Below, piece by piece: positions 6,496 through 55,217 of a DNA stretch of 64,000 nt (positions within the stretch are counted from its first letter, which is position 1; each line of letters starts with the position of its first letter). The notes below the pieces were generated by a model. The model was not told where the DNA came from and did no database searches. It was given only the letters and a program-made list of their open reading frames with translations. The DNA is from an uncultured Acidobacteriaceae bacterium (lineage in GTDB: Bacteria; Acidobacteriota; Terriglobia; Terriglobales; Acidobacteriaceae), in NCBI GenBank assembly GCA_964245715.1, contig CAXTNM010000017.1:2911-66910 (forward strand). The letters run 5' to 3'. The translations under genes and the position numbers were made by a program.

Positions 6496-6640
6496 GCGGT
6501 ACTGCGTGTGCCGGGAGCTTCGCGTGGTCCTCCCGCTGGTCGGCACAGACATGAGTGCCGACCGACGGGAGGAGAACGCGAAACCCAGGATGGCACGAAG
6601 TGCTCGCTGCCCGCGCTGAGGGCGCACTCAGGCATGTTTG
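6496..6640. repeat. REP-like composite palindromic repeat, copy 1
   Basis: GCGGTACTGCG (6496-6506) and GGTCCTCCCGCTGGTCG (6526-6542), forming a hairpin with GTGCCGACCGACGGGAGG; same motifs recur near 10680 and 12635. Confidence 0.7.
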
Positions 6641-6852
6641 CCGGTCAGATAGCCAATCACAACGTGCAACACGGCAAGCAGCGGGCCCAGTGCCGCGACG
6701 ACTCCCTTCATGCGCTGCAGCGCGCGTTCGGTTGAGACCAGGCGGCCTTCCAGTTCGTGCAGCCGGCCTGGCTGGCCAATCCCGAGGATCTGTTCCATCT
6801 GGGCTTTTAGAACTTGCAGGTCGCCCAGGACCTGCGCTTCATAATCTGTCAT
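6628..6852 (-). CDS. Small holin/XhlA-like membrane protein
   Basis: 74 aa; coiled-coil N-terminus and one C-terminal transmembrane segment (VVAALGPLLAVLHVVIGYL); GAAAGGGA RBS; last gene of the cluster. Confidence 0.5.
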   Translation of the reverse strand: MTDYEAQVLGDLQVLKAQMEQILGIGQPGRLHELEGRLVSTERALQRMKGVVAALGPLLAVLHVVIGYLTGKHA

Positions 6853-6870
6853 ATCTCGATTCCCTTTCGG

Positions 6871-9258
6871 CTAGCTGCCTGGTTGATGGTTGAGGATGGC
6901 GGCCGAGAAGCGTGAATAGAGCGGCGGCGTGGAGGCGTCGTACATGCATAGGAAGAAGGTCTCGTCGGCGGCGGCGAGGGGAATCGAGAATCCGCGTACA
7001 GGACTGCGCAGGACCAGATCGCCACTCGCACTCGGAGCAGTGAGCGAGCCGAAGCCGCCGTCTCGTCGTCGCACCTCGAAGCCTCCACCCGGGGGCGGTG
7101 CAATGCCCGCGTCGACCGTCAGCGAGGTTGAAGAGGCAGGAGTGATCGTGATCTGCGAAAGATTGGCGAGGACATGAACGGGGAGCGTAGCGCCTGTAAC
7201 AGAGTCGATGAGATCGAGCGCCGCGACCGGGAGGAAGGCGTCGGCTTCGATGGTCTCGGAGAGCTTGAGCCCGAGGCCTTCGGCCCAGTCGTTGGCGAAC
7301 GTGATCCGGTAGGTGAGGGCTTCGGGGCTCGCGTCCTGCTGCGAGACGGTGACGCGGCGCACGATGCAGTTCAGCGTCTGGTTCTGGCTAAGGACGATGA
7401 GCAGATCACCGGGCCAGATGTCCGGGCTGGCAGGGTTCACTGCCTCATACGTACCGCTGAGAGCGGCCGCACGATTCGACGCAAAGCTGAGAATAGCCTG
7501 CGCGGCGGCCTCGCAATCCTGACTCGAGCGGGCGGGCGGTTGGACAACGTGGCCAAGCCAGCGGGAGGTTCCTGCAACGCCGTTCGTCTCTCCGGCTGCC
7601 TCGACGGCCAGGCTTGCGGGGTCGGCGACCCGTGCGATGGCGCGCCCGCGTCCGCGGTAGGAGACCGCGATGGTCTCGCCCGCGGCGGGAACGCGTCCGG
7701 CAAAGAAGGTGATGCGGCCCGTGGTGGAGGAGGTGACGGAACAGTCCGCGCCATCGGAAGCCTTGCCGACCAGGCGCGTCCACTGCGTGCCGGTAGAGCT
7801 TGTGCTGCGAACCCAGCAGGTGCCGCTGCGAGTCAGCGTGAGCGATCCAACGGACCCGGAGAGTGTGAGGCTGTTGATCGGAACGAACGTGACCTGCGCG
7901 GGCGAAAGGGCGATTGAGCCGTCGTAGAGCACGGTGATCGGCGTGTTGGAGGCGGAGGCCTGGTCGCGCGCCTCGAAGACGAGAGAGACCGGCGCCGGGT
8001 TGGTGCCGGAGCCGAACTGGGCCACTGTGGAGCCACGGGGCGGCGATTCGACCAGGGCGTAGAACGATTGCTGGACGCGCAGAAGCTCTGGGCAATGAAG
8101 CCGCAGGCGGAAGGTGTACACGTGGGCGGGAGCGAGGGTAAGCGACGTGCCTACCTCGACGCCGTTGATCATTGGGGTGGCAAGCGTCTGGCCGGCGCTC
8201 TGGCGAATGTTGAAGCCCGCGAAGCAGTTGGCCTGCCGGGTGCTACCGTTGTAAAGCCCGCCGAGGATGCCGGCGGAACCGGCCGTGAAGGTGACGGCAT
8301 CGAATTCGAGGACGAGCGAGCCGCCCACTTCCAGTGGATCCCAAGCGGCGACGGTGGTCTGGCCGTCGAGACCGTTGCCGCCGCTGACCGTGAGGCCCGC
8401 TGACGTGAGGGACAGGTGCCCGCCGGGATCGTTGGTCTGCCACTGCTGCAGGTTGAGGGTGGATTCGGTGAAGGGTTCGGCGATCAGCGTCGCGTGTGCG
8501 GCGTCAGGTGCGTCCGGCTCGCCGAGCAGACCGAAGACTTCGGTGGTGCCGTCGCCGGTGAAGAGCTCCGTCCAGTAGGCGCTCGGTTCGAGAGCGCCGG
8601 TGACGGTGATGTCGTTCGCGAGCTCTTTGAGCGAGGTTGTCCTCAACGCGCCGACGGCGAGCGATCCGTCGCCATCCGAAAACGTGTGTTGTACGAGCGC
8701 CAGACCGGCGAGTCCGATCGTCCCGTTGATCGCGCGATAGCTGCTGTAGGTGGAGTTCGCGAGAAGGCCGGCGTTGCTCGACCAGTTACTTCCCTTCTCC
8801 GGCTCAAAGATGCCGGTGAGGTTGGTGGCGGCGCCCGTAGTCGTCAGGACATTGGGCGCGAGGCGCTGCACGAGCGACGTCATCAGGTTGGAGGTCGACT
8901 CGCCGAGTCCGGTGCCGACGGTCGATCCCCAGGACTGCTTATCAAGCAGCCACTCGTCTGAGACGGCGGAGAGGGCGAGGCGGTAGACCGGCCCGGGACT
9001 CGCCTCGCCGGCGTAGAGTGCCGTGGGTTCGGTAGTCAGATAACCCGTGAATAGCGTGATGCCGGCGGTGGTGCTGGTCACAACGACGCGACCGCGGCGC
9101 ACCGGCGTCGGCAGGATGGAGGCCTCAAGGCAGAGCATACCCCGGAGGGCACTCGGCGCGTTCAACGTCCGGTTGATCTCGAAGGGTTCCGAGTTGTCGA
9201 TGGCGGCGGTGTAATCGATCGGTCCGAGCCCGTCGAGATTGTCGATCGTTAGCTGCAT
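6871..9258 (-). CDS. Putative tail hub / host-specificity protein (795 aa)
   Basis: Beta-rich, Thr/Gly/Ser-rich protein starting MQLTIDNLDG at 9258, overlapping the portal stop. The C-terminal IVRRVTV..YRITF resembles tail-hub beta barrels. The track ORF's extension to 9642 overlaps portal and is rejected. Confidence 0.55.
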   Translation of the reverse strand: MQLTIDNLDGLGPIDYTAAIDNSEPFEINRTLNAPSALRGMLCLEASILPTPVRRGRVVVTSTTAGITLFTGYLTTEPTALYAGEASPGPVYRLALSAVSDEWLLDKQSWGSTVGTGLGESTSNLMTSLVQRLAPNVLTTTGAATNLTGIFEPEKGSNWSSNAGLLANSTYSSYRAINGTIGLAGLALVQHTFSDGDGSLAVGALRTTSLKELANDITVTGALEPSAYWTELFTGDGTTEVFGLLGEPDAPDAAHATLIAEPFTESTLNLQQWQTNDPGGHLSLTSAGLTVSGGNGLDGQTTVAAWDPLEVGGSLVLEFDAVTFTAGSAGILGGLYNGSTRQANCFAGFNIRQSAGQTLATPMINGVEVGTSLTLAPAHVYTFRLRLHCPELLRVQQSFYALVESPPRGSTVAQFGSGTNPAPVSLVFEARDQASASNTPITVLYDGSIALSPAQVTFVPINSLTLSGSVGSLTLTRSGTCWVRSTSSTGTQWTRLVGKASDGADCSVTSSTTGRITFFAGRVPAAGETIAVSYRGRGRAIARVADPASLAVEAAGETNGVAGTSRWLGHVVQPPARSSQDCEAAAQAILSFASNRAAALSGTYEAVNPASPDIWPGDLLIVLSQNQTLNCIVRRVTVSQQDASPEALTYRITFANDWAEGLGLKLSETIEADAFLPVAALDLIDSVTGATLPVHVLANLSQITITPASSTSLTVDAGIAPPPGGGFEVRRRDGGFGSLTAPSASGDLVLRSPVRGFSIPLAAADETFFLCMYDASTPPLYSRFSAAILNHQPGS

Positions 9259-10511
9259 ACGCTGGGCTCCTTGGATTCCTCGAAGCCGCTGCCAGAAATC
9301 ATGCTTGAGGCTGCTGGTGGCAGGCCGCGCATGGCTCTGACTTCCGCGACCGAGAGCACGCCGGCGTTGAGCAGCTGGATCTGGATGTTGAGTTCGCCCT
9401 GCTCGTCGCGCGATTCGAGATCGTTGAAGAGGAACTCGAACTCGGGCCAGCCGATGCATTTGCCAAAGAGATCGCGGGTATTGTGTTCGGCGAGCAGCTT
9501 GGCGACCGGCACGATCGCGGACTGGAAGGCCTCGTCGGCGAACTCGCCGGCGGTCGACTGGTTGACGTCGGCCTCCAGGCCAAGCAGCATCGGCGGCAGG
9601 TCGAACGCGTTGCCGATCATGCGGATCAGGAACTCCTGCCATGCAATGCGAAGATCCGCGTCCGTGCCGCCGGCGAAGCGCAGCACTTCGGGCTTCTTTT
9701 CGCAGCTGAGCACGGGCACGCGCCCTGTGCCCTCGATCTCATCCTGCCACCAGCGGATCAGGCGATCATGCTGCTCGGGCGTGGTCTCGTCGAGCCAAAG
9801 CGCATATTGCACGACTGAATTCGAGGCCAGGCGTCCGGCGTAGCGATTAGCGCTGAGGAGCTGACTGATGGACTCGTACGCGACTTCAAGCCGGCCGAGC
9901 CCGAAGGGAGTATAGGTGCGCGGGTTCAGCCGGACGTAGATCAGTTCGGAATCGAGCAGAGGCGTGATCGCTTCGGTGCCCACGCGGCCGGTCTGGAAGC
10001 CATAGCGCGGAGTCTCGGCCTCGCCGTTCCAGCGCGGATCGACCTGGATGGCGGCGCCATCGATCGCCCAGAGTTCGAATGGCTTCGAGGCGTCGCCGGT
10101 CGGCTTCATCTCGACCGCGCCGAAGCCGCCGACGAGCGTGTCTTCGAGCACCTGTTCGAAGAGCGTGCGGAAGCTATCGGAGGTGTTAGGTTGTTCCAGC
10201 GCGGCGCGGAGTGCATCGAGCTTCACCTGGACGTCCTTGATGCCGGCCGGATCGAAACCGCGGCGGACGCGGACCTGCCAGTCCATCGAGGCGATGCGGT
10301 CTTTGACCAGGTTGATCGCGCGCCGGGCGACCGGGGTCTCGGCAAACTTGCGCAGGCTCGCGGCCGAGGGTTTGGAAAGCGCCTGATGGCCCGAGTTTGG
10401 CGCCTGGTACGGACTCAGCACAGCAGGTAACGCCTGCGTCTTCCGGGTGGCGGGTGTGGCCTGGGCTCTGAGAGCGGCCCAGGCATTGTGGATGCGGGTG
10501 GTGAGTGGCAT
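9249..10511 (-). CDS. Phage portal protein (HK97-like, 420 aa)
   Basis: PNTSDSFRTLFEQVLEDTLVGG, PFGLGRLE, IGNAFDLPPMLLG and GVLSVAEVRAMRGLPP portal motifs; GGAGG RBS before MPLTT at 10511. Confidence 0.9.
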   Translation of the reverse strand: MPLTTRIHNAWAALRAQATPATRKTQALPAVLSPYQAPNSGHQALSKPSAASLRKFAETPVARRAINLVKDRIASMDWQVRVRRGFDPAGIKDVQVKLDALRAALEQPNTSDSFRTLFEQVLEDTLVGGFGAVEMKPTGDASKPFELWAIDGAAIQVDPRWNGEAETPRYGFQTGRVGTEAITPLLDSELIYVRLNPRTYTPFGLGRLEVAYESISQLLSANRYAGRLASNSVVQYALWLDETTPEQHDRLIRWWQDEIEGTGRVPVLSCEKKPEVLRFAGGTDADLRIAWQEFLIRMIGNAFDLPPMLLGLEADVNQSTAGEFADEAFQSAIVPVAKLLAEHNTRDLFGKCIGWPEFEFLFNDLESRDEQGELNIQIQLLNAGVLSVAEVRAMRGLPPAASSMISGSGFEESKEPSVCS

Positions 10512-10741: not shown

Positions 10742-11611
10742 TTACAGCCCTAAATCCTGACGTACGATCGCAGCCGAGCGGACGAGATCGTTCATGGTGA
10801 GGACGTTGATTCCCTGCTGCTCCATCGTCTCTTTGCCGAAGTCGTAGCGTTCCCAGAGTTCGCCTTCGGCTGCAGCGATGGCATTGCGGGGTTCAACGAT
10901 GGCCGTGAGTTCGAGTGAGGCATGTTCGACCCGGGTCACGCCGGCGTGAAGTTGAGGTGCCATGAAGGCAAGCACCTTGGCGCTTTCGAGATCGCCCTCG
11001 AGCGAGACCGCCTGGAAGACGCGCAGGGCGTTACCGACCTTTGGGTCTTTGCGGTAGCCGCAGTCGAGCTTGAGCGGGTCGCCCTTGCGGGTGTAGCGCT
11101 CTGCGGGAATGCGTTTGTTCATGAGCTGCCAGACGCCGGCGCGCTCGAAGTGGGTGCGCATGGCGGCCTGGATGGCGGGTCGCCCGGTGCTCTTGCGGCT
11201 TTGTTTCAGCGGCGCAGCCTGCGCCATCGGTTCGACGTAGAGACGCATCAGCTGTTCGAGCTCGGTGGTGAGGTTTTCAGCGAGCGCGGCGCGCGGTTCG
11301 GTCATCTGCACGGAATTCGAAAGTGACGCCTCGAGCACGGCCAGCAGCGAGGCAGGTTCGCGCTCGGTGGGACCAGCCGTCAGACGCCGGGAGATCTCCT
11401 GCTCGAGATCTTCGAGCAGCGAGACATCGGCAGAGGCGTCCATGCAGCGGACGCGCGTCCAGTCGCGGGTAAAGCGGACCTGGATGGATGGGCTCGCGTG
11501 GGGGGTCTCGTGCGCCTCGCGCAGGAGCACGCCGATGTTGACGAACTCGCCCTTGACGATGTCCGGAACATAGCGCACCAGGAAGAACTCGCATGGAACT
11601 CGGGGCTGCAT
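10742..11611 (-). CDS. DUF3037 domain protein (usual partner of HipA-like kinases)
   Basis: FFLVRYVPDIVKGEFVNIGVLL N-terminal signature; AAAGGAG RBS before MQPRVP at 11611. Confidence 0.85.
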   Translation of the reverse strand: MQPRVPCEFFLVRYVPDIVKGEFVNIGVLLREAHETPHASPSIQVRFTRDWTRVRCMDASADVSLLEDLEQEISRRLTAGPTEREPASLLAVLEASLSNSVQMTEPRAALAENLTTELEQLMRLYVEPMAQAAPLKQSRKSTGRPAIQAAMRTHFERAGVWQLMNKRIPAERYTRKGDPLKLDCGYRKDPKVGNALRVFQAVSLEGDLESAKVLAFMAPQLHAGVTRVEHASLELTAIVEPRNAIAAAEGELWERYDFGKETMEQQGINVLTMNDLVRSAAIVRQDLGL

Positions 11612-11679: not shown

Positions 11680-12547
11680 TTACATGACGAACTTCGGGGT
11701 AACTTCGAGCACCTGAAATGATGACGGCACCGTGACGAGCGCAGGTTTGTTCCAATGCGGGAATGGTTCGCGGGTAGAGTTCTTGAAGGCTGTGATGAGG
11801 TCCCTTACTTTGCTGCGGCGATCGAGCAGCTGTTCCATCAATCGCTCGATGGTGGTGAGATCGCCCCCGTACCAGACGGGCGGGACGGCCTCGGCGATGG
11901 CCCAGAGCTGGTTGGCGTCCAGGGTCTCGAGGCGGCTGAGCCAGGGTTCAAACGACTGCCACCCCTGGATGCGGGCGTAGACGCTCGAGCGCGGGTAGAC
12001 GCCCCGCAGCGGAGAATCGGGGAAATCCCAGTCGCCGGCGTTGAAACAGAAGCCCTGGTCGATGAAGACTGCGCGATACTTGCGTTCGCGTTGTCTGCGT
12101 TCGAAGACCGCTTGCCGGCCGTTGCAGTTGCCTGTCCATTTGTCGAGCGCGAGCATGCCGGCGAATTCTGCGTGGTTGCGCAGGTCGTCGAGTTGCGGCT
12201 CGGGCAGGAAGTCGACGACCTGTCCGGGCATGAGGCCGCCCAACGAAGGCGCTGCCGAAGTGCAGACCGCCCGTGCAGCGCTCCTGGCGTCCTCTTCCGA
12301 GATCGACGAACAAATCTGCCGTGTGGGTGGCGAGCCAGTCGGTGACTTCGATCACGTCGGACGCCGGGACGCTCAGGCCGAGCGCCTCGGCCAGTCGCGT
12401 GACGATAAGTTCGTTGGCGAGCACGCGCAGGTGCTGCGGATTGTTCTGGAACTTGACGACCCAAAGCCGCGAGTCGGCGCCGAGCATGAGCTGGCTCTGG
12501 GCGCCGCCGCGCATCCTTCGGATTGCCTGGACGGCGAGTACGGCCAT
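11680..12547 (-). pseudogene. HipA-like (HipA_2) Ser/Thr kinase interrupted by a one-base frameshift
   Basis: N-half (MAVLAVQAIRRMRGGAQ, VVKFQNN, LANE) and C-half (LDKWTGNCNGRQ, FIDQG) lie in different frames. They join at GTTGGGCGGC (~12237-12245), where removing one G restores FVGGLMPG; 868 nt = 289 codons + 1. Could be a sequencing error. Confidence 0.8.
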
Positions 12548-12568
12548 GTAGACAACCATACAGACTCT

Positions 12569-12675
12569 GTCCTGCCGGACGGGCGCGCCCTGACGCGAGG
12601 CCGGCGGTACCGCGGGCGGAGGAAGCTTCGCCAGGGTCCTCCCGCTGGTCGTCACGAAGCCCCCGCAGCACGCGA
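12569..12675. repeat. REP-like composite repeat, copy 3
   Basis: GTCCTGCCGGACGGGCGC (12569-12586), GCGGTACCGCG (12604-12614) and GGTCCTCCCGCTGGTCG (12635-12651). Confidence 0.75.
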
Positions 12676-12685: not shown

Positions 12686-14152
12686 TCATCGCTTCCCCTC
12701 GTTTCTGACGGCATGTGCGACGGCCATGGCCATCAGGCAGTCGTCGTGTGCGCCGGGCGCGGCGCCCGAGCCGCCGTTGTCGAACGAGACGAAGCTGCGG
12801 CACTCGGTGAGCAGGCGCCGCGAGTAGAAGAGCTCCGCATCGTCTTCAAGCAGGGCGCCGATGCGGCTGATCATGGCGGGTTTGTTGCCCGCCGTGGTGA
12901 GCCATCCGGCGACACCCTGCCGTGCGTACACGCGCTCATAGCGCTCGGTGGCGTCGAGATACGCGAGCACCGCGGCGCCATGGTTGTTGCGCTCGACGGC
13001 GATGATCGCCTGGTTGTACTCGCGTGCAAGCTGCGCGCCGATGCGTGCGAGTTCGAGCGGCGCGAGGCGTTCGCGGAGTTCAGCGCACTGCAGCCCGGTT
13101 TCGCGGTCGAGGACCTGAATCGCGGCATAGTCGCCGTCGGGTCCGCCGCCTGCGGTATCGACGCCCAGCAGGTACTCGCGCAGCGGCTGGGGTGAAAACC
13201 AGATCTGCAGCGCGCCGCCGCGCCGGGTGGCGAGCGGCTCCCGCAGATGAGCGAGGCGACGTTCGATTGGCTCCGGTGGAAAGCAGCAGTCGCCCGATGC
13301 CCGGAAGCAGCTCTCGGGATCTTCGGCGAACTCCTGCGCGCGCAGGCCGCGGAAGTTGCGTTCCAGCTCGCGGCGAAAGCCAATCTGCTCCGGTGTGAGA
13401 GTGTGCCGGAAGGCGAGTTCAAGTTCCTGTGGCGTGAGCTCGCGTGGCGCCGCGCTGGCATACGCAGGTTCGAGCCACCAGGGATAAAAGTGCTGAATCA
13501 GGCCGGTCTCCGCGGCGTGCGTCCACTCTTCGAAGAAGGCGCCGTAAGCTCCGCTGGGCGTGCTTTCGAGCGTCATCTCGCCGCCGGGAGCGAGTGCGGC
13601 GCGCAGACCGGCCAGGGTGGCCTGCGCGTCGCCAGGCCAGCGGGCTACCTCGCTGAGATGAAGATTCTGGATCGTAAGTCCGCGGCCGGCGTTATCCTCG
13701 CCTGCACTGATGACGCGGAACTCGCTGTCGAGTGCGCGAAAGACCATGCGGTTGGCGCTTGATCGCGAGAGTTTAAGAGCATCCTTTCGTAGATGATCGG
13801 GCAGGTTGTGCCAAAGCCGCTGCACGATGGCAAAGAGACCTTCGGAGGCCTCGCGGGTGTGCGCGCAGAGCACCGTGAGTGAGCCCGGGATGGTAATGGT
13901 CTTGAGGAAAAAACGCGAGGCGATCCAGGTGGTGATGCCCATCTGCCTGGCCTTGAGGACGATGTTTTTCTGGCTGCGATTCTCTTCGAAGCGGAGCTGG
14001 ACGGGATTGGCTTTGAGGTGGTGGGTCTGGCCGTTGCGGTCGCGGATCAGCAGCAGGTCGCGAGCCATCCAGACAGCGGGAGGCTCTCCTGCGTCGTTAG
14101 GCTCGTTGGCTTTAAGCAGCTTGCCGTACCGCAGCAGATCGGATGCAGTCAT
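12686..14152 (-). CDS. Terminase large subunit
   Basis: Walker A variant LKARQMGITT, Walker B LHLSE, motif III ESTP, and RNase H-like nuclease residues GVDTAGG and HDDCLMA. Confidence 0.92.
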   Translation of the reverse strand: MTASDLLRYGKLLKANEPNDAGEPPAVWMARDLLLIRDRNGQTHHLKANPVQLRFEENRSQKNIVLKARQMGITTWIASRFFLKTITIPGSLTVLCAHTREASEGLFAIVQRLWHNLPDHLRKDALKLSRSSANRMVFRALDSEFRVISAGEDNAGRGLTIQNLHLSEVARWPGDAQATLAGLRAALAPGGEMTLESTPSGAYGAFFEEWTHAAETGLIQHFYPWWLEPAYASAAPRELTPQELELAFRHTLTPEQIGFRRELERNFRGLRAQEFAEDPESCFRASGDCCFPPEPIERRLAHLREPLATRRGGALQIWFSPQPLREYLLGVDTAGGGPDGDYAAIQVLDRETGLQCAELRERLAPLELARIGAQLAREYNQAIIAVERNNHGAAVLAYLDATERYERVYARQGVAGWLTTAGNKPAMISRIGALLEDDAELFYSRRLLTECRSFVSFDNGGSGAAPGAHDDCLMAMAVAHAVRNEGKR

Positions 14153-14246: not shown

Positions 14247-17200
14247 CTAGAACTCCCAGTGCCAGCCGGAGGTCGTCTTCGGGTTGGGAACCAGGCGGAG
14301 CGTCAGCGTGGCGTTGGCCGGGATGGTAACGGCTGTGCTGCTACCGTTGACCGGGTGGGCGGAAGAATCGGCCGTGACGGTGATCGCGTAGGTGGACTGC
14401 GCGTTGTTGAAGCGGAAGGTGCTGCCGCTCGCTCCGGTGCAGTCGGGCAGCGTGATGTTGCCGCCGGCTGCAAGCGCACCAAGGTCGAGATAACCGTCCG
14501 CACATGCCATGGTGAAGCCGCTGAGTGTGGTCAGGACGTGCGGGTTCGATTCGTTGTAACCGAAGTACCAGTTCAGGCCGTTCGAGACGGCGGTTCCCAT
14601 CAGCTGGTTGCCCAGGGTAGTTGGGTGGATGTGGTCGACGGCCTGAAAGTAGGTGGTGTTGTTGTAGGCGCCATCCGCACCCAGCAGCGGGTTGGCGGCA
14701 ACGTCGAGAACGCCGGCAAAGCCAGCAGACTTGGCCTGCTGCAGGATCAACGCGTTGTAGGTGTCCTTCAGGGCATCCATGGTCTGGCTGCCGTAGCCAT
14801 TGGCGGTGCGCGAGATCATCGTATTGACGAACGGCGTGCACCCTGCCTTGCGCATCAGCGCGGCCCATGCGGCGGCCGAGCTCCAGACTGCCTGGGGCGA
14901 GAGCGGATTGATCGACGCCAGGTCGTTGGTGCCGGCTTCGAGGATCGCGACCGCCGGACCAGCCTGCGTGCTACAGAGCGGTGCTGCACGGTTCGCCTCG
15001 TGCGACAAGATGGTCGCGAGCCGAATGCCGATGATGCCTTCGTTTGAGATCACATACGACGGCTGGTTGGTCAGGTTGAGCTGCGCGGTGTAGGGCGTCT
15101 GGCTGTTGGTCGCCGCGGTAATTGAGTCGCCGATCGCAAGCAGTTGCGGCTGCGCGAGCGAGACCGGCAAGGGCGACGTGGGTACTCCCTTGGCCGCGGC
15201 GAGCGCGAAGAAGGCGCTGACATTCTGTTGAATCTGCGCAAGCGTGTGCTGGGTGGAGCTTGCGCCGAAGCCGTAGAACGTGCCCGGGAAGAATCCATTG
15301 CTCCACGGCGAGATGCCTGATGAGCCAAGATAGAGGTTCCCCGAAGTCTGCGCGCCGCAGTTCGAAGCCTCTGTGCTGTAGCTGACTTCTACGCCGTCGA
15401 CATAGAGGTGATCCAGGTTGCCGCTGCCCGTGCCGCAGACGACGGTGAGAACCTCAAAGCCTGAGAGGGTGTTGAGCGAGGCGGTCGAGAGCGCATTGGG
15501 GTAGATGGTGGTGGTGTAGGTATGGTCCGATTGCCCGGAGGAGATCTCGCCCGGAAGCTGCAGGATGACGTTGAAGCCCGCGCCTCCCGTGCTGCTCGAC
15601 ATCAACGTCGGATAGACGTTGCTGATCTGAGCGCCAGAGGTGATCGGATTGAGATAGACCGCGTAGTAGAAGGTCTTCTCGCCATTCAGCGCGGCAGGCA
15701 GCGCGACGTTCGAGCCCGCGGTGAAGGCAAGCCCGTTGCCGGTCCAGGTTGGCAGGGTCGACCCACCGAGCGTGCCATTGTTCGTGCCGATACGGTCGGA
15801 GACAGTGGTGCCGGACTGGTTGGTAAAGTCGTACAGCGTATCGAACGTGGTGAAGGAGCTGCCACGAGCCGCGCCGATGACGCCTAACCCAGTGTTGGCC
15901 GTGAAGGCGGAGACCGGCTGCGCCGAGGCAGTGCCAAGTACGGCCGAGGTCTGACCAGTTGCGAGTTGAACCGCGCCGAGTGAGCTGGAGGTGGCGGCGA
16001 CCGTGGGCCCAGACGGGCCTGCAGCGCCTGTTGCGCCCGTTGTACCTGCCGGCCCGGTTGCGCCTGCTATCCCAGCCGCGCCTGCGATCCCAGCCGCCCC
16101 TGTAGCTCCTGTAGCGCCCGCAGGTCCTTGTACACCTGCTGCGCCGGAGACGCCGGCAGCTCCTGCTAGGCCGGTCGCCCCGGTTGCCCCTGTGGGTCCG
16201 GCTATGCCGGCAGCCCCTGCTACGCCGGTCGCTCCTGCTGTGCCCGTGGCACCGGTGGCTCCGGCTGTGCCGGCTGGTCCCTGTGCTCCTGCCGGTCCGG
16301 TTGCCCCTGCGGGGCCTTGTGGCCCGGTCGCTCCGCCGGCGCCTGCGATCCAGGTTCCGTCTTCACGCAGAAAGCGGGTCGTGCCTGCGGTTGGGCCCGG
16401 ATCTGGCACAGCGCCGCTCGCGTGGCCGGCGCCTGAGCCCGCGAAGATGGGCAGGCTGGCGGGCGTGATGGAACCCGCGAAGGAGCCAGTGAACGCGCCA
16501 TGGACCGTGGTTGCGTTGATGGTCGAGACGTTGATGGTGCCTGCGGTAAATCCTGTCGGCGTGAACTGGTACAGTCCGCCGCGCAGGTTGAAGCTCAGAT
16601 TGCTGGTGGCGGGCGAGTAGTTGATGGTGTCAAGGCCTGCGCTGTTATCCAGCTCGAAGAGGTTATAGGCGGAGTTCCAGGTATTGCAACCATGCGAGTT
16701 GCAGTGCACCTCGACCGCGGCGTCTTCGCCTGCTTCAAGCTCGAGCGAGTGATACCAGACGCCTGCGACGCTCAGGCCCACGCTGGGCGCGCTGTGGGTG
16801 CCGGCGTTGCCGAAATAGTTGGTCACCGGCGTCTCGTTGGCGATCTGGAAGCCGAACAGACCTGGGCCGTTGTTGCCGTAGTAGAAGAGCCCAGGGATGG
16901 TGTTACCGGTAGGACGCGGAGTGTACTGGGTGATCGCTTCCGGGTCGGCGTGCACGTTCTCCTGGAAGTAGTGAGGCTGCTCGACGACATCGTGCAGGGT
17001 CCACGGTACGTTGTTGGCGGCCAACGTCATGGTGCCATCGACCGCATGCGTTGCGGGGTTGTAGACGGTCAGCACCTCGGCCATTGGGTAGAGGTTGTAG
17101 GAACCGGTTGAATAAGAGAGGGTTCCGCCGGTGCTCGTTGAATTAGGACCACTGCTGGGATAGGTGAGGGCGCTGCGTCCGATGGTGGTCACGGGGAAGC

Positions 17201-19316
17201 TGCCGTTGTAGCTGGAGTCGGCAACCCCCGCAATCGCCAGCGTGAGCCCATTGACATCGACGGGAAGATTGCCCGCAATGGTGACGGTCACGACGTTGGC
17301 GTTCCGTACGATCGAGGCGACGACCAGGTTGAGGTTGACGTAGGCGCTGTTCTGGCCCTGCACGCCTACGATCGGGGTAGCTCCGCCGGCATAGAGCAGG
17401 CTGGTTGCGGAAGGAGAGCCGATGACCGGAAACACCTGGCGGATGCCGTTGGTGGTGTCGACCGTCTGCTCAAGACCGTATCCGCACAGACCACCGACTG
17501 CGACGGTTGCGCCGCTGCCGTGCGGGCGGTTGAGTGTGAGCTGGATGTGTGTAGCGTCGACAACCATATACGCAGCAGTCTCGAAGTTGAGAGCGCGACC
17601 GTCGCCTACCGCAACATCGGAGACGCAGGCTACGCCGTTCGTCGCCGGCAGGGCTGCCGTATTGGTGGCGAAGCCTGTCGGCACACCCGAGGTGACGAGA
17701 GGAACGGTGACGACTCCTGGAGCCATGTTGTTCGCCTGGCTGGGGATAGTTTGGTTGGTCTCGAGGAAGGTGCTAAGCGGAAAGCTGGTCCCGGTGAAGG
17801 TGGCGAGCGGCTGTCGTCCGCCGCCCGGTACGCTGCCTGCGATCGAGCCGGTGTTAAGAATGTGCGCGGGATTTTTGTCGATCAGATAGCGTCCCTCGCC
17901 CTGGGTGGCCGGACTTGCGGTTGCGGCGATCTGCAGCGAGGTGGCTCCGGTGGAGCAACCGGCGGAGCAGGTTCCCTGAAAGACGCGCGAGTCCTCGGAG
18001 TACGCGAGGTCGAACGGGTGAGCGCCTTCATCGGCATCGTCGCGGAAGCCCCCCGAAGCAAGCATCTCGAGGCTTCCCATCAGGCAGTCGCCTACACCGA
18101 AGCAGTTTTGCGTCTCAGGAACGAGGACGTGCTGCCCGGGTGTATTGGAAGTTCCGGTAAGGTTCAGGGCGCTGTAGGTTGTCTTGAAGTAGGGCACCGT
18201 GCCCTGGACGTGCGAGGGAAAGGTGTTGTTGCCACCGGCCAGTCCTTCCTGGCTGATTGCCAGCCCGGTAGAGTAGATGACGCTCTGGCCGGTTGCCGCG
18301 AGAATACTGGGAGCGGACTGGGTGGACTGGACGTCGATCGACGCGCCGTTGTTCTGGCTGCCCTGTGTATTGATGGGGTTGAAGAAGGTGTCCTTGCGGC
18401 CTCCACCGCGCTCATCGACGATGTGCGTCTGGTTGTTCCAGGTCGCGGCGGCGAGCGTCTCGGTAGACGGGTAAGTCTGTTCCGCGACGACCTCGCAGCC
18501 TGACACACAGTTGGAGCTCGCAGTCGCATTGGCGATGCCGTTGTTGCCGAGGCCGCTCACGAAGTCGGCGGCATACTGCACGCTGTTGAGTGTGTTGACG
18601 GCCAGTTGAGTGCCGGAGGGTTGCGTGACCGTCTGCGTGGCGGTGGGCGTTGTGCTCACCTTTTGACCGACACCCGCAGTAACGCCGGCGATCTGCTCGC
18701 TGACGTAGTTCATATCGGCCGCCTGCAACGGTGAGGTCGGGTCGCCCGGAAGAGTCAGCGCACCCGTCATGGTGTCACCCGCCTTGAGCACATAAGGCGT
18801 GCTGTCGAGCGGCGTTCCCGTGGCTGCGACCGCAATCGCAGTGTCGACGTAAGCCTTCGAGACCGTCTGCATGGCCACACTGGTGGGCAGCACGGACGTG
18901 CTGATGGCGGAGACCTGCACCGGATAGGAGCTTACGGGGACAACCCAGTAGGAGCGGGTCTGGGTGCCGTCGTTCAGGTGAAAGACGACGGTGTAGTAGC
19001 TGCCCATCGGCGTCGAACCGGAGTTCGAGACCAGCGGCACACTGAGCAGGCCGCCGGAGCCGATGGTGGCCGACATGGAGCCGGCGACGATGGTTCGGCC
19101 CGTAGCCGTAGTGAACGCGGGCCAGCTGATGAGCACAGTCCCGCCGGCTGCGGTACCATCGGCACGATAGACGGCATCCTGTACTGTCGTCGTGGGGATG
19201 GGGGAGATGGGTGTGGTCTGGGCGAAGGCATAGGCCGCGCTCATGCAGAGCGAACCGAGCATGAGGAAGGCAGCCATACAGATTTCAGCCAGTCTCCAAT
19301 GATTTCGAGATTTCAT
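14247..19316 (-). CDS. 1689-aa modular tail-fibre-like protein: signal peptide, beta-rich repeats, collagen-like stalk, lectin-like region, SGNH esterase
   Basis: GGGAG RBS before MKSRNHWRL; hydrophobic segment ending AYAFA-Q; 37 Gly-X-Y triplets; SGNH blocks IGDSIT, EAGTNDL and DHIHP near the C-terminus. Confidence 0.75.
16002..16334 (-). repeat. Collagen-like (Gly-X-Y)37 coding repeat
   Basis: [12 protein letters not shown] ... GPS GPT; uninterrupted Gly at every third residue. Confidence 0.9.
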
Positions 19317-19356: not shown

Positions 19357-20373
19357 CTAGACGGCGCGCATGGGGCCTGGCAGATAGCTGCGGAAGCAGA
19401 CGATCTGTTCGCCATCATTCGCATCCCTGACGGGCAGGGCACGGAAGTTGCCGGCAAGACGGATTCGTTCCAGGCTGCCGAATTTGGAAGCAGTGAGGCT
19501 TTCGGCTTTCTCAGACGGACCCTGCATGGCCTGCAGGCGCGGATAGTGGAAGACAATGCGGTCGCCCTGCTCGCCATCGATGACGAAGAGCGCGGACCAC
19601 TCCTGGAAGAAGCTGCCGCCTTCGCGGTCGCAAAAGCCGGCGACATGGCTTACCTGCATCCCGCTAATGGGCGTGCCGGCAAGCAGCGGCGCACCGAGCG
19701 TGAGCAGGTTGCCTCCGCTTCCGGTGCTGATGGCGACGACGCGCCCCACGTTGAGCGTGACGCGGCGAATGTAGTCGATGTCGGAGCCGATCGCTGCGGC
19801 TGATTTGACGTAGCCTCCGCTGACGCCGCTGCCGACAAAGGCGGTCTGGCCGGTGTAGTCGATGTCGACCGCGACGACCTCGCCGACGGTGAAGCCGGAC
19901 GCCGCAGCTCCAACATCGAGCGTGGTTGCGGTCGAGCCGGAGGCGACGGGCACGGCAGGTAAAGCCGCGCCGCCGCTCCCGTTGGCGGCTGCTCCTGTCT
20001 GGGTTCTCAGGACGTTCATCTGCTGGGCGCCGGCGGTAAGCGCAAGCGGCAGTTTGCCCCAGGATTCAAACTCGAGCGAGACGTTGGCCTCGATAGTCGT
20101 GCGGGCTTGCGTAAGTGGAACGCTGGGAGCGCCACTGGCAAGCGCGACAGTCTTCGTGCCCGAGGTGCGGATGAAGTTCGAGCACCAGCCGAGGTCGACC
20201 CAGGGTGCTGGTGGCGCGGCCGGGTTGAAGGCAGCGATGCCGGCTGGATCCCACAGGGTGGGCTGCGAGATGACGCGGTTGACCGGCGCGAAGAAGGCAC
20301 GTACGCGACGGGCTACAGGAGAGACGGCCGGAGAAATGGCCGGCGTCCCCGGTACAAGCAGCTCACTGGCCAT
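19357..20373 (-). CDS. Putative tail tube / major tail protein (338 aa)
   Basis: [21 protein letters not shown] and IVFHYPRLQ beta-strand patterns typical of siphovirus tube proteins; follows the terminator-like gene with an 11-nt overlap. Confidence 0.6.
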
Positions 20374-20884
20374 AGCCGAAGACCTCCAGTTGCGCGATGC
20401 GTTCGAGCCTCTCACCGCGCGCTACGACCGGTACAAAGGCCACTTCGCTCCAGAAGATGCTGGAGGCGAGTACTGTTGTGGTCGAAGCACCGCCGCCTGC
20501 GATCTCGGCGATGGTGTCTGCGGTCGCACGCTGCGGCCAGATCGTGAGAGCGCTGGTGAGCTCTGCATCCAGCGCGGCAAGCGTGCGGCCGCGATCCATT
20601 GCCGCGTTGCTCGTGGTGCCGTCGGACGCATAGCGGATCTCGCAGCCGAGGGTCAGCAAAGGGCCTGCGCTTTCCGCATCGACCTTGAGCGTGGTCCAGC
20701 GAATGCAGAAGGCCTCTGCGGGCGAGATACCATCCACTGCCGTGCCGGGCAGCTCGTTCTCGGGCACGAGAACGCCCGGCCTCAGGACACCGCGGACGAC
20801 CATCGTTCGCGCGGGATTGAGCGCAGCGAGGCGGCCCTGGAGCGTGGCATAGAAGGAATCTTTGATGGCTTGGACATTTAGCAT
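20363..20884 (-). CDS. Putative tail terminator / neck protein
   Basis: 173 aa; position between head-closure and tube genes; AGAAAGGA RBS. Confidence 0.45.
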   Translation of the reverse strand: MLNVQAIKDSFYATLQGRLAALNPARTMVVRGVLRPGVLVPENELPGTAVDGISPAEAFCIRWTTLKVDAESAGPLLTLGCEIRYASDGTTSNAAMDRGRTLAALDAELTSALTIWPQRATADTIAEIAGGGASTTTVLASSIFWSEVAFVPVVARGERLERIAQLEVFGYGQ

Positions 20885-20931: not shown

Positions 20932-21351
20932 CTAAGTGAAGTTGCTGATCGCGCCGCGCAGGCCAAGGCGGTAGAGGTATGGCGAGCCGAAGGCCTCGGC
21001 GGTCGCGATCCAGGTGATGCCGTAGAGCGCGCCGTCAATCAGCACGCCGTCGGCCTGGGCGAAGAGAACCTCTCCCCCGTTGAAGCCCAGAGTGCCGGCA
21101 GCACGGCTGACGGCCGACGCGGAGAGCAGCAGCTCGTAGGAAGCTTCGTCCGGCTTATCGGCCGTGCCGGTCCTGGCGCGCACGCGGCGAAAGAGCGCGG
21201 GGCCGAGCGCGAGATCCTGAAACTGCGGAGTGGCGAGGCCGAGCTGTTCGCCGAGGTCGCCATTGATCGCCGATGCGGGCAAGCGCATCAGCACCATGCG
21301 GCCGCCGACCCCGCGCAGGAGCACGTCGGACATTTGCTGATGCGGCGTCAT
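20932..21351 (-). CDS. Putative head-closure protein (139 aa)
   Basis: MTPHQQ start overlaps the adaptor stop (ATGA); C-terminal VLIDGALYGITWI..YRLGLR resembles gp16-type barrels. Confidence 0.45.
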   Translation of the reverse strand: MTPHQQMSDVLLRGVGGRMVLMRLPASAINGDLGEQLGLATPQFQDLALGPALFRRVRARTGTADKPDEASYELLLSASAVSRAAGTLGFNGGEVLFAQADGVLIDGALYGITWIATAEAFGSPYLYRLGLRGAISNFT

Positions 21352-21983
21352 CCGAGACGCTCCGCCCGATACGGCTGCAGCATCAGCTCGACGCCTGGAT
21401 CGATCAGCTGATTCGAGAAGTACTGCATCTCGAGGGTGTCGAGCTTGCTGCTCTTCACGTTGAGCGCGGGGATTGCCTGGGCGTTCTTGACGATCTGTGC
21501 GCAGGCAGCCATGACCTGCGTCGGCATGTTTACAAAACCCGCAGTGTAGGTCAGCTCGACCTCGTTGTAGCCGAGCCCAGCTCCGAGAAACGTAGAAGGC
21601 AGTGTGACCTCGCGCGGTCCGGCATAGACATCGGCCGTCGACACATCGAGGTTCGTCCACGTGCCCGGCAGCCCGAATGCTGTAGCGATTTGCTGGAGGA
21701 AGAGGCCGTTGTGGCTTGACTCGAGGGCGACGTCCTCGCCGCGGCGCGGTCGTGCGTAACGCACGCGTCCGCTGAGGAGCGCGCCTAGGAGCAGCGGGCC
21801 GTAGCTGAGGCGGAAGGTCTGCGAACCGGCGATCAGGCGAACGCGCTCGGTGTACTGGGTGGCGAAGAGCGAAGGCCGGCGGCACCAGGCTTCCATCAGG
21901 GCCGAAGCCATGGTGACGAGCTCGTCGGCGGTCTCCGGCTGCAAGCCGTAGGCTTCGTACGATGTGGGCGAGAGGTAACCCAT
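21348..21983 (-). CDS. Putative head-tail adaptor (gp6/gp15-like)
   Basis: ASALMEAWCRRPSL, ELTYTAGF..MPTQVMAAC and LMLQPYR motifs of head-tail connectors; directly after the capsid gene. Confidence 0.65.
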   Translation of the reverse strand: MGYLSPTSYEAYGLQPETADELVTMASALMEAWCRRPSLFATQYTERVRLIAGSQTFRLSYGPLLLGALLSGRVRYARPRRGEDVALESSHNGLFLQQIATAFGLPGTWTNLDVSTADVYAGPREVTLPSTFLGAGLGYNEVELTYTAGFVNMPTQVMAACAQIVKNAQAIPALNVKSSKLDTLEMQYFSNQLIDPGVELMLQPYRAERLG

Positions 21984-22011
21984 CGTGGTCTCCTTTCAAG
22001 AGCGAGGGATC

Positions 22012-22047
22012 AAGGCAAAGGGTGAACAGGCGTTGACCTGTTCACCC
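22012..22047 (-). terminator. Stem-loop plus TTTGCCTT tail downstream of the capsid gene
   Basis: Minus strand GGGTGAACAGG-tcaacg-CCTGTTCACCC-TTTGCCTT; perfect 11-bp stem. Confidence 0.65.
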
Positions 22048-22072
22048 CCGTTTTGGTTGCGAGGCCAAGGGC

Positions 22073-23044
22073 CTACCGGTCGACGAGGACCTGATAGTGG
22101 GCGTAGTTGGCGCCCTTCACGACAACGCCGCCGAACTTGACCACCACATACTGCGAGGCGAGGTTGCCGGGGACGCCGAGCTGGAAGACGCGCGGGTTCG
22201 GGTCCGAGAGCCAGTGATATTCGATCAGGTCTTCGGTGACGATGTACGCGGGCAGGACGGCCGAGCCTGAGCCCGGCGTACCCGTGTAGGGCAAGGTCCA
22301 CTCGGGGATCAGCGGGATGTCGCCGGCCTGCGTCGAAAGGGTCTTCACCGTAAGGCCGCCCTCGATGCTCCGCGTGGTCAGGACCACGTTGTACTCCGTC
22401 TTCATTTCGCGGTCGATCAGGTCGAGCAGCACCGGGTTCGCATAGATCGCGGTCGGACGCACGCCGAAAGAGGTGTTCGAGAGCATCTGCGCGATGGTCG
22501 ATTTGAGACCGTCGACGATGCTTTGCGTGGAGCCGATGGTGGTGGTGTTGCCGCCGGCGACGATCTGCCCGATGGCGCCAAAATACTGCGCGGAGGTTGG
22601 CGTCGAGAAGCTGGTATCAGAGCCGTTCCAGAGGGCGATGTCATGCGTGCGGAGAACGCCATCGACCGTGTCCGCGAGATCCTTCGCCTGCAGGTAAGCA
22701 AACTGCGACTGCTGCCTGCCGAGCTCAAGATCGAAGAGGTTGTAGTTGATCTGTGAGACCAGTGCTTTCAGCGGCACGGCACGCTCGACGCGGGTGGGGC
22801 TGACGATAGGCGCAATGATGTTGCGGGGATCGACGAAGGTACTTGCGGCCGCTGCGACCGGGATCGCCGTCTCCTCGAAGTAGCGCGAAGGATGGCCGGT
22901 TGCGGGGATCTGCTTCATGCGCTGCCCGAAGACGCCGCGGCGACGTACGAGATCGAGGATCTCAGTCTGGTAGACGGGAACTTCAATGGCTCCGGGTCCG
23001 ATGTAGTCTGCGGTCGCGTGGATGTCCGTAAATTTTGCGTTCAT
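22073..23044 (-). CDS. Major capsid protein (HK97 fold, 323 aa)
   Basis: Size, position after protease and scaffold, and HK97-like layout (TEILDLVRRRG; DLADTVDGVLRTHDIALWNG; PTAIYANP; YVVVKFGGVVV); AAAGGGA RBS before MNAKF. Confidence 0.8.
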   Translation of the reverse strand: MNAKFTDIHATADYIGPGAIEVPVYQTEILDLVRRRGVFGQRMKQIPATGHPSRYFEETAIPVAAAASTFVDPRNIIAPIVSPTRVERAVPLKALVSQINYNLFDLELGRQQSQFAYLQAKDLADTVDGVLRTHDIALWNGSDTSFSTPTSAQYFGAIGQIVAGGNTTTIGSTQSIVDGLKSTIAQMLSNTSFGVRPTAIYANPVLLDLIDREMKTEYNVVLTTRSIEGGLTVKTLSTQAGDIPLIPEWTLPYTGTPGSGSAVLPAYIVTEDLIEYHWLSDPNPRVFQLGVPGNLASQYVVVKFGGVVVKGANYAHYQVLVDR

Positions 23045-23059
23045 GTTTGTCCCTTTCAA

Positions 23060-23096
23060 AAGGCAAAGGGACGCAAGGCTGATGGGCCTGCGTCCC
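23060..23096 (-). promoter_or_regulatory. Stem-loop plus TTTGCCTT in the capsid leader, overlapping an alternative RBS-sequestering hairpin
   Basis: GGGACGCAGGC...GCCTTGCGTCCC-TTTGCCTT; alternative stem GTCCCTTT/AAAGGGAC (23049-23072) covers the RBS. Confidence 0.5.
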
Positions 23097-23169
23097 TGGT
23101 TGGATTGAGTTGTGGCTGGGAGTTGCTCGACGAGCGAGTGATCCGCCGTGGTTGACGAAGAGCGACGCT

Positions 23170-23577
23170 CTAGGCGAGCAGACCGGTACGAAGCATCTCC
23201 GACTTGACGGCGATGCGCTGCTCGATCGAGAGGCTGCGAAGCGAGGAGTCGAGCGCCGAGGCTTCAAGCGCAACGCCATCCCGTGAGGCAAGTGCGGACG
23301 CGCCCGCGGACGCTGTCTTCCGCGTGGACGAATGAGTCGTTTGGACGCGAGCGGCTTCTGCGCGCAGCGAAACAATGGTTGCCGCAGCCTCGGCGAGCTG
23401 CTGTTCTAGTTGCTGTTCGCGCGGGCTCACGAGCGAAGCGTTCAGCTCAACACCGGCGAAGCGTTCAGCAGCCTGTTCGAGCAGGCTGGCCGCGGCGTTC
23501 AGACGCTCGAGCGCGCAGCCGAGATCGTCGCTGGCATGAGCATTGAGGTCAGTAGGTACTTGCATTTCCATCTCCAT
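23170..23577 (-). CDS. Putative capsid scaffolding protein
   Basis: 135 aa, Ala/Glu/Gln-rich coiled coil, directly upstream of the capsid gene; AAGGAG RBS. Confidence 0.5.
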   Translation of the reverse strand: MEMEMQVPTDLNAHASDDLGCALERLNAAASLLEQAAERFAGVELNASLVSPREQQLEQQLAEAAATIVSLRAEAARVQTTHSSTRKTASAGASALASRDGVALEASALDSSLRSLSIEQRIAVKSEMLRTGLLA

Positions 23578-23593
23578 GAAGACATCTCCTTAA

Positions 23594-23986
23594 CTAGTTG
23601 CTGGGAACGGCTTGTATCGCGGGCGCAGGCTGCGCGTTGAGGATGGCGACGACAGCGTTAACCAGGCTGGTAATGTACTCCGGGCTTGCATTTATGCCCG
23701 CATGGCTCAGCAGGGTTGTGACCGCTCCCTGCGAGATGGTGAGAACCTCCGAGAGCTTCTGCGCTCCCGTGCCGCTTTGCACGCCGGCCGCGGCAAACTT
23801 CTGCTCGACGGCGAGCACAGAGTTCTGGATCAGGGTGGTTGCATCCTCGGCGGCGGACATCACCGGGGCGGAGGCCGGGAACAACAGGCCGACGAGGCTT
23901 TCGACGGGAACAGCATAGGTCAGGGCAAACTTGAGGCCTTTGGCAAAGTCCTTGCCGATGGCTTGTAACACGCCAAGAAACGACAT
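23594..23986 (-). CDS. Putative LL-H-family holin-like protein
   Basis: Amphipathic/hydrophobic N-terminus, then VLAVEQ...GAQKLSEV...LSHAGI...ITSLVNAVV, resembling the LL-H pattern AVEQ..G..K...L...G...I..LI.AAV. Confidence 0.4.
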   Translation of the reverse strand: MSFLGVLQAIGKDFAKGLKFALTYAVPVESLVGLLFPASAPVMSAAEDATTLIQNSVLAVEQKFAAAGVQSGTGAQKLSEVLTISQGAVTTLLSHAGINASPEYITSLVNAVVAILNAQPAPAIQAVPSN

Positions 23987-24020
23987 TGTTTCTCCTTGGA
24001 TTGCGAGTGCGGTTGTGTGG

Positions 24021-24656
24021 CTAGTAGAAGCTGGCTTCGAGGCGGCTGACGGGCTTCTTGACGCCGCGGCGAACGCGGAAGCTGGTACCGCGATAGGCTG
24101 CCTTATCGCGCAGCAGGATGGCCGCGCCGGTGAAGGTCGCCTTGGTGAGCTTCCAGATGGATGCGCGCATGTCGGCGACGTGGGCGTCTGCGAGCTCGTA
24201 GCTCATCCCCATGCCACTTGCGGAGCCGGCGCCGAGTGCGGGCTCCATCTCGGGAAAGTCGCGGGCGTAGAGGTAGCCTGCCACCAGCAGCTTCTTATCT
24301 TCGAGCGCTGCGGAGGTGATGATGCCGCACTTCTGGCGTGCGTCGTGCCCGTCCCAGCCGGCCTTGTAGTCAACGGCCATGCCGAGCAAGCTGGGGATGG
24401 CGGCTTCGGCGGCAGCGTGGGTCAGCACGACGCGATGTCCGCGCGCGCCTGAGGGAGCGCGATCGCTGGGCGTGTCGACGAGTGTGAGGCAGCCTTCAAA
24501 GGGGAGCCGGTTGGGATGTCCTGCGACCTCCGGGAAATCGACGGCCATGGCACTCATGGCAAGTGTATGAGCTCGCCGTGCAGAGTTGAGCAAAGACGCC
24601 GGGAGTCGGCAGGTGGATGGGCTTGTGGGCCGGCTCATGGGTTGGTTCCACTCCAT
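24021..24656 (-). CDS. Putative prohead (capsid maturation) protease
   Basis: His in WDGHD and Ser in GMGMSYE resemble the HK97-type protease dyad; first gene of the structural operon; AAAGGAG RBS before MEWNQ at 24656. Confidence 0.55.
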   Translation of the reverse strand: MEWNQPMSRPTSPSTCRLPASLLNSARRAHTLAMSAMAVDFPEVAGHPNRLPFEGCLTLVDTPSDRAPSGARGHRVVLTHAAAEAAIPSLLGMAVDYKAGWDGHDARQKCGIITSAALEDKKLLVAGYLYARDFPEMEPALGAGSASGMGMSYELADAHVADMRASIWKLTKATFTGAAILLRDKAAYRGTSFRVRRGVKKPVSRLEASFY

Positions 24657-55215: not shown

Positions 55216-55217
55216 CG

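Follow-up and report, generated by a model that had tools for sequence, protein, structure and literature searches.

A phage-derived head, packaging and tail-tube gene cluster fixed beside purE in the Acidobacteriaceae, probably encoding a stub-tailed particle akin to gene transfer agents

Gene transfer agents (GTAs) have, to our knowledge, been described in a small number of lineages, most of them alphaproteobacterial, and full-text literature searches found no description of one from Acidobacteriota. Here we analyze a stretch of 64,000 nucleotides (the window) from contig CAXTNM010000017.1 of assembly GCA_964245715.1, an uncultured Acidobacteriaceae bacterium. Between positions 6628 and 25826, the window holds a cluster of 17 open reading frames (ORFs), all on the minus strand and arranged head to tail with gaps of −11 to 382 bp, which includes genes for a large terminase (TerL), a portal and a head–tail adaptor. 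The cluster is phage-derived, chromosomally fixed, vertically inherited and widespread in the Acidobacteriaceae, with purifying selection acting on all of its genes. We consider it probable that it encodes a DNA-packaging particle, domesticated and GTA-like, whose tail is a stub; the length of the tail and the function of the particle are what we infer. In the order of transcription, the genes are as follows.

25488..25697, minus strand: znr, a small zinc-ribbon protein (CxxC...CxxC) whose gene opens the cluster and overlaps sigma-r4 by 4 bp
24940..25491, minus strand: sigma-r4, a sigma-70 region-4-only helix-turn-helix protein (PF04545, PF08281, phrog_1740)
24021..24557, minus strand: prohead-protease-like protein, 178 aa, named from its position
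23594..23986, minus strand: p130, a helical accessory protein with a weak PF09682 match; not core
23170..23577, minus strand: scaffold-like protein, 135 aa, named from its position
22073..23044, minus strand: major capsid protein candidate, 323 aa, named from position and conservation
21348..21983, minus strand: head–tail adaptor (phrog_442)
20932..21351, minus strand: p139, putative neck protein, named from its position; ATGA-coupled to the adaptor gene
20363..20884, minus strand: p173, neck or tail-terminator candidate, named from its position
19357..20373, minus strand: p352, tail-tube-fold protein, from a predicted model and Foldseek
14247..19316, minus strand: 'fibre', 1689 aa (PF01391, PF13472, PF13385 and a Sec signal peptide)
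12686..14152, minus strand: terL, large terminase (PF17289, phrog_2)
11680..12547, minus strand: HipA-like kinase, frameshifted, in two overlapping frames that span 11680-12655 (PF20613)
10742..11611, minus strand: DUF3037 protein, partner of the kinase (PF11236)
9249..10511, minus strand: portal (PF04860, phrog_2662)
6871..9258, minus strand: hub, a 795-aa tail-tip/central-fibre-like protein, from a predicted model and fold search
6628..6852, minus strand: sm74, a 74-aa coiled coil with a membrane anchor at its C-terminus; purE comes next

From the protease-like gene to the last small ORF, this is exactly the order described in a previous reading of the same DNA made without database searches (the sequence-only reading). 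The cluster is flanked by purE and purK downstream, and by an alpha/beta-fold-like host gene and glyA upstream. Neither the ORF list nor family scans revealed an integrase, a repressor or a replication gene among the window's ORFs, and the 64 kb contain no tRNA. Phage structural and packaging genes thus stand in the chromosome without modules for integration, replication or lysogeny, as in GTAs. The prophage hallmarks of an integrase, a tRNA target and an immunity repressor are missing at the cluster (att repeats were not searched for), and so is the combination of integrase, alpA, replication module and lack of tail genes that marks the capsid-forming satellites known as cf-PICIs. With a GC content of 64.0%, compared with 58.8% for the genome, the cluster exceeds the mean by about 2.4 standard deviations and ranks among the top 0.2% of 19.2-kb windows, even though it is old and has been passed on vertically. 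This enrichment fits the GTA class, as RcGTA-type clusters are reported to be rich in GC, too (PMC7360931).

A scan of species-representative genomes yielded 142 terL relatives, and the loci of 80 were fetched. About 70 of these 80 genome loci have the same genes with conserved lengths, most of them adjoining purE-purK-E2-lipB, and the cluster lies beside purE-purK in dozens of species. In a family sample of 201 Acidobacteriaceae genomes from 116 genera, terL is present in 134 genomes (89 genera), nearly always as a single copy, and the capsid gene in 130. Comparison of the two tables gives 128 genomes with both genes, six with terL alone, two with capsid alone and 65 with neither; the joint occurrence extends over 88–89 of the 116 genera. 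No terL-type relative was found in 24 genomes of the sister family. Comparison with the nearest relative gives a dN/dS of 0.06 for the capsid candidate, 0.07 for sm74 (which has 59 full-length orthologues) and 0.12–0.17 for the genes of the portal, TerL, tube, hub and neck, next to 0.075–0.08 for purK and purE; dS is 0.6–1.3 in the cluster, close to the 0.7–0.8 of its flanks. Furthermore, pairwise distances for cluster genes correlate with those for purK (Mantel r 0.59–0.79), a level that none of 500 permutations reaches. Long-term vertical inheritance, a fixed locus and purifying selection, all of which characterize GTAs, are therefore found together here.

These observations bear on whether the loci could be temperate prophages of the ordinary kind, perhaps defective, with a specific integration site beside purE. 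It is true that VirSorter-type tools call such loci viral, both in 29 IMG/VR contigs that carry related loci and in the published 'Cluster 153' (PMC5900883), and that a real myovirus contig (L139, discussed below) contains distantly related head genes. However, a prophage would have to make do with only 19 kb and without an integrase, repressor, replication gene or tRNA, and it would have to occupy, as a single copy, one and the same site across the window's genus and also in two less closely related genomes with the gene order usual for the family. Nor would one expect dS to equal that of the flanks, dN/dS to be 0.06–0.17 or distances to co-vary with those of purK. No related isolated phage was found among 50,697 phage records: the capsid candidate has no match there, and TerL reaches at most 28% identity, with Stx-type podophage terminases as the best matches. 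We therefore regard the prophage explanation as very improbable. The same records speak to a point raised in the sequence-only reading, which held that its interpretation would be undermined if free phages with the same gene order were common; no sign of such phages appeared.

The gene order of the window is peculiar to its genus. The usual order in the family is exported large protein-terL-kinase-DUF3037-portal-protease-scaffold-capsid-adaptor-p139-p173-tube-hub, with the exported large protein upstream of terL. This canonical order was seen in eight genome loci (L086, L095, L097, L102, L103, L107, L109 and L110) and in most of the IMG/VR contigs. The window's order results from a single swap in which two neighbouring blocks, [fibre-terL-kinase-DUF3037-portal] and [protease...tube], traded places, and it is because of this swap that terminase and portal come after the tail genes. 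The family sample includes four genomes of the window's genus, each with the capsid gene upstream of terL; in every one of the other genomes compared (more than 25), the capsid gene lies 4.5–8 kb downstream. The swap thus appears, from these comparisons, to have arisen in the common ancestor of the window's genus and to be confined to that genus. In the terL tree, 71 window-type rows form one clade nested among canonical-type rows, and the window-type L085 and L089 sit at an unresolved fork beside it; a single origin of the swap is consistent with this tree without being forced by it. In the canonical-order loci L109 and L110, the hub gene is directly followed by purE, and since they share this junction with the window, the swap happened in place. 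Accordingly, 'rearranged', as the sequence-only reading put it, is true of the window, but not of the element, which is canonical in related genera. In one clade with canonical order (genomes G061–G064; loci L086, L095, L097 and L103), the hub gene is no longer beside purE.

Hidden Markov model (HMM) searches confirm the labels that the sequence-only reading gave to terL (PF17289 at 1.7e-9, phrog_2 at 7.6e-25), the portal (PF04860 at 5e-47, phrog_2662 at 4.5e-35), the adaptor (phrog_442 at 2.5e-11), the kinase and the DUF3037 protein. PF04860 is also the family to which we take the g3 portal of RcGTA to belong. The deviant Walker A motif K67-x4-G-x-T of TerL and residues E168, D332, E387 and D470/D471 are kept in 99 aligned sequences; the Walker A motif resembles the lambda-gpA type, E168 is the Walker-B glutamate, and D332, E387 and D470/D471 are acidic residues of the nuclease, so that the motifs of both ATPase and nuclease are intact.

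The labels protease, scaffold, capsid, closure (p139) and terminator (p173) are putative ones based on position and conservation. Pfam and PHROG scans up to an E-value of 5 gave nothing for p139, p173, the protease-like protein, the capsid candidate, the tube protein or the hub, and PDB profile searches with orthologue alignments of the same six proteins gave nothing significant; the scaffold-like protein has no family match either. Local hhalign comparisons of the hub domains, p173, the tube protein and the adaptor with one another showed no relationship. The capsid candidate is 322–324 aa long in the first 60 orthologues listed, with a mean column identity of 90%, and a homologue with 44–46% identity occupies the capsid position of L139, an IMG/VR myovirus contig that has small terminase (TerS), TerL, portal, sheath and tape measure genes in normal order. 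The protease-like gene directly follows the portal gene in canonical-order loci, and H41, H71, D72, S119 and E121 are among the invariant residues of its product. In all loci read, the scaffold-like gene sits between the protease and capsid genes and p173 between p139 and the tube gene; p139 has 77 orthologues.

For the tail, fold searches on predicted models support the labels tube and hub. An AlphaFold model of p352 was built from 35 orthologues, with a predicted local distance difference test (pLDDT) score of 62.8. Its nine best Foldseek matches in the PDB are all siphophage tail tube or tail assembly entries (E 2.6e-9 to 2.7e-4), headed by the phage Mystique tail tube (2.6e-9) and including the YSD1 major tail protein and tail entries of Chi, JBD30, SPR and Bxb1; the template modelling (TM) scores against these entries are low (0.28–0.37). 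Against T5 pb9, the E-values are 0.14–0.46. No separate Dit was found in the cluster, and p352 could, judging from its model, itself serve as a Dit-like ring. The predicted model of the hub (pLDDT 64) has a confident ConA-like lectin/glucanase core. Its matches in the PDB are lectin domains (1.8e-5) and, over 747 columns, the central fibre of Mycobacteriophage Douge (2.9e-4), and those in BFVD are tail and minor tail proteins (9e-10 to 1e-5). The cluster thus resembles the tails of siphoviruses such as Chi, YSD1 and JBD30 in having a tube-fold protein and a large central-fibre/Tal-like tip protein preceded, in the order usual for such phages, by adaptor and neck genes, but differs in lacking a tape measure, G/GT chaperones and a recognisable Dit, and in that tube and hub genes abut.

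Inspection of the ORFs and HMM searches revealed no tape measure, tail chaperone or small terminase in the cluster. The sequence-only reading had noted this of the window, and it holds for the related loci read as well. In the window, 40 bp separate the tube and 'fibre' genes and 94 bp the 'fibre' and terL genes, while the portal and hub genes overlap (−10 bp). In the two canonical-order loci read through the junction (L129 and L124), only 67–255 bp lie between the tube and hub genes; since the tube gene abuts the hub gene there, a tail without a ruler is probably the ancestral state. Within the reach of current models, the element as a whole likewise looks ancestrally devoid of both ruler and TerS. 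The tube and hub genes are kept under selection in this ruler-less, TerS-less state. A very short tail, as proposed in the sequence-only reading, is therefore a reasonable deduction, given that the tape measure and TerS are missing from related loci as they are from the window.

The sequence-only reading had also suggested that the missing parts might be encoded elsewhere, as several RcGTA genes are. If so, or if they belonged to families that the models miss, the tail could be of normal length, with a tape measure, chaperones and TerS supplied from other loci. The resemblance of p352 to tube proteins of long-tailed siphophages speaks for this, as does the fact that known siphophages need a tape measure for tube assembly, and p139, p173, sm74 and znr are without a fold assignment. 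However, the tape measure family PF10145 was found in none of 37 genomes (the own genome and 36 relatives), and phrog_28, the other tape measure model, had no match in the own genome, whereas both score in control genomes. Searches of the own genome with the cluster proteins (tblastn) returned self matches only, so that it has no paralogues of cluster genes, and it contains no tblastn relatives of the TerS, tape measure or sheath proteins of L139. There is no room for a ruler gene between tube and hub in L124 and L129, and no unassigned ORF of the cluster is long enough for one. We therefore consider a normal-length tail unlikely, and the idea of parts encoded elsewhere gained no support from these searches.

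Genes for head and packaging but none for a tape measure are also what a capsid-forming, cf-PICI-like satellite would have, with heads of its own and tails borrowed from helper phages; reports describe cf-PICIs as making capsids and stealing tails (10.1101/2025.02.11.637232, PMC10085698). The likeness extends to the small size of the cluster and to its own capsid, portal, terminase and connectors. In contrast to cf-PICIs, which are mobile (integrase, replication) and have no tail genes, the cluster is immobile, without integrase, alpA or replication module, and encodes tube-fold and hub proteins of its own that are under selection. Its inheritance is vertical and family-wide. A satellite is thus hardly credible as an explanation.

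The remaining genes could relate to control of the particle or to other tasks. The product of sigma-r4 (PF04545 at 3e-8, PF08281 at 3.9e-7, phrog_1740 at 6.9e-9) is a candidate for a dedicated activator, a regulatory role that its family suggests. It is preceded by znr orthologues in both order types; znr itself has no family match. In L086, two host genes, one for a Gfo/Idh/MocA-like oxidoreductase and one a lipoprotein-like ORF, separate sigma-r4 from the structural genes, so that the regulator pair stands apart from the operon there.

The 'fibre' has collagen repeats (PF01391 at 8.7e-15), an SGNH esterase domain (PF13472 at 2.4e-10) and a LamG-like domain (PF13385). Its N-terminus is a canonical Sec signal peptide of 30 residues followed by FAQ, kept in nearly all orthologues of both order types. 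From its sequence the protein is probably exported and not incorporated into a particle, whose assembly would be cytoplasmic; a role in the virion is therefore doubtful. Other lineages have a different signal-peptide protein upstream of terL, with a weak right-handed beta-helix match (L124:1052-3469, L118:71-2635). Co-transcription of an exported protein with capsid genes is odd.

Between terL and portal, nearly all loci of both order types carry the kinase (N-terminal piece, PF20613, HipA_2, at 4.7e-7) and the DUF3037 protein (PF11236 at 7.5e-23), L130 and L135 being without the pair. By its domains this would be a pair of the HipAD / DS-6 / PDC-M66 type, and a HipA-like kinase with a DUF3037 protein is an experimentally validated anti-phage system of toxin–antitoxin type elsewhere (PMC13092281, PMC12548924). 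Such a pair embedded in nearly all loci, together with the large exported glycan-active proteins encoded alongside, raises the possibility that the particle has another role for the host: release of DNA for biofilms or nutrients, killing, or suicide defence linked to HipA/DUF3037. Opposing this, a terminase and a portal that are intact and under selection suggest DNA packaging; in the window, the structural genes are intact but the kinase has a frameshift, and the two loci without the pair dispense with it altogether. We regard such a role as rather doubtful. The frameshift may be an assembly error or mark a real pseudogene; the DUF3037 partner is intact, and the C-terminal piece of the kinase has 187 aa here versus a median of 297 aa for the matching ORFs in 77 relatives. 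On contig C67 of the own genome (~23567-24398), weak adjacent tblastn matches to the kinase (E 0.055) and DUF3037 protein (E 0.16) suggest a second, very divergent pair of HipA/DUF3037 type.

The following model would account for a GTA-like particle with a stub tail. The cluster would be read as one operon, probably switched on by the znr/sigma-r4 pair. Portal, protease, scaffold and capsid proteins would form procapsids, which TerL would fill without a recognisable specificity subunit, so that packaging would probably not be sequence-specific. The adaptor, p139 and p173 would close the filled head, and these neck rings, with probably one or a few tube-fold rings capped by the hub, would make up the tail. 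With tape measure and chaperone missing, and with the tube and hub genes side by side in L124 and L129, this tail would be no more than a stub. The lectin domain of the hub may then bind a surface glycan. The block swap would cost nothing, as the element would no longer package its own genome and would be read as one operon from the sigma-r4 end.

The best comparison is RcGTA, likewise a mobility-free cluster of head, tail and packaging genes that is chromosomally fixed, vertically inherited, with losses, throughout a large clade, under purifying selection and GC-enriched (PMC7360931, PMC11841831). Nevertheless, the cluster appears to be an independent lineage, with a capsid that matches no known family and a TerL that is closest to podophage terminases (28%). 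RcGTA has a TerS (g1) and a tape measure (g11), neither of which is present in the window or the relatives read, and the cluster differs further in its embedded HipA/DUF3037 pair, its Sec-exported giant protein and its host phylum, Acidobacteriota. That it is a sixth independent GTA lineage, the first in Acidobacteriota, with a reduced tail derived from a siphovirus, no tape measure and a head filled without TerS, is a tentative proposal to which we give somewhat less than an even chance.

Several observations weigh against a GTA-like particle with a stub tail. The particle, its packaged DNA and any transfer are predictions from the genes. The capsid candidate has no sequence match in Pfam, PHROG or the PDB, even when a broadened alignment is used, the models of tube and hub are only moderately confident (pLDDT 63–64, TM 0.17–0.37), and the sole fibre-like protein, with its Sec signal peptide, is a poor fit to a virion part. 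Assembly of a tube protein without a ruler fits poorly with the proposal. Moreover, tape measures and small terminases are diverse, and a novel family of either, which may be encoded elsewhere, would escape both HMMs. The element is also dispensable or decaying in some lineages, as seen from about a dozen sampled genomes with a split terL and from two loci of different sub-clades (L084 and L087; genomes G067 and G068) in which the whole protease-to-tube block is lost. In both loci, fibre, terL, kinase, DUF3037, portal and hub are still present next to purE, the hub of L087 also being truncated, and neither genome has a capsid gene anywhere. Finally, a published study counts the 60-90 kb region of KBS 89 scaffold00005 among its predicted prophages, under 'Cluster 153' (Eichorst et al. 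2018, PMC5900883). Locus L055 (67837-89246) falls inside this region, and the two are the same element. That study presents Cluster 153 as a group of Caudovirales prophages that are predicted and may be active; it does not describe the fixed locus, the vertical inheritance across the family, the missing mobility genes or the ruler-less tail (PMC5900883). On balance, the interpretation given in the sequence-only reading is partly supported.

If most Acidobacteriaceae have a conserved cluster for making particles, the GTA picture would come to include a major soil phylum that is hard to study. If our reading is true, it would suggest a possible route of gene exchange in soils, where the Acidobacteriaceae are a dominant family, and the genus-specific swap would make it visible that the genes no longer have to travel inside the capsid. 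The ruler-less tail poses the structural question of how a tail tube assembles and stops without a tape measure. Such loci are now called 'prophages' or 'viral contigs' (IMG/VR, VirSorter), with the result that lysogeny in soil Acidobacteria is overestimated. The cluster is present in several cultured strains, among them Granulicella rosea DSM 18704, Tunturiibacter gelidiferens X5P2, T. lichenicola MP8S11 and the Acidobacteriaceae KBS 89 and KBS 146, which makes the proposal directly testable.

The accessory protein p130 had been called holin-like in the sequence-only reading, a label to which the weak match to PF09682 (LL-H 'holin'; E 0.003, below the cut-off) lends slight support. It occurs in only 10 of the 201 family genomes, at three different positions. 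In P0148, a metagenomic relative, the p130 domain lies C-terminal to a PF01832 glucosaminidase domain (E 1.9e-30), and this fusion ties it to cell-wall lysis; from its distribution and domain context, p130 is probably lysis-linked and not core. A role as the small terminase was considered because p130 lies directly upstream of terL in L120, L121, L107 and G162. It was rejected in view of the restriction to 10 of 201 genomes, the slot after the hub gene in G083, G088 and G194, and the glucosaminidase fusion. There was no match of p130 to any TerS family, and large protein searches gave only 'hypothetical protein' entries. The product of sm74, at the other end of the cluster, has no family match.

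Two further features were observed. About 230 bp upstream of the p130 homologue that precedes terL, L120 and L121 have an ORF for a 63-aa hydrophobic, holin-like protein (L120:614-805, L121:2898-3089), which may be what is left of a lysis cassette that stood at the end of the ancestral genome. Outside the cluster, the GC content drops to 52–56% at window positions 45000-60000, compared with about 59–62% elsewhere, and this region may be another island.

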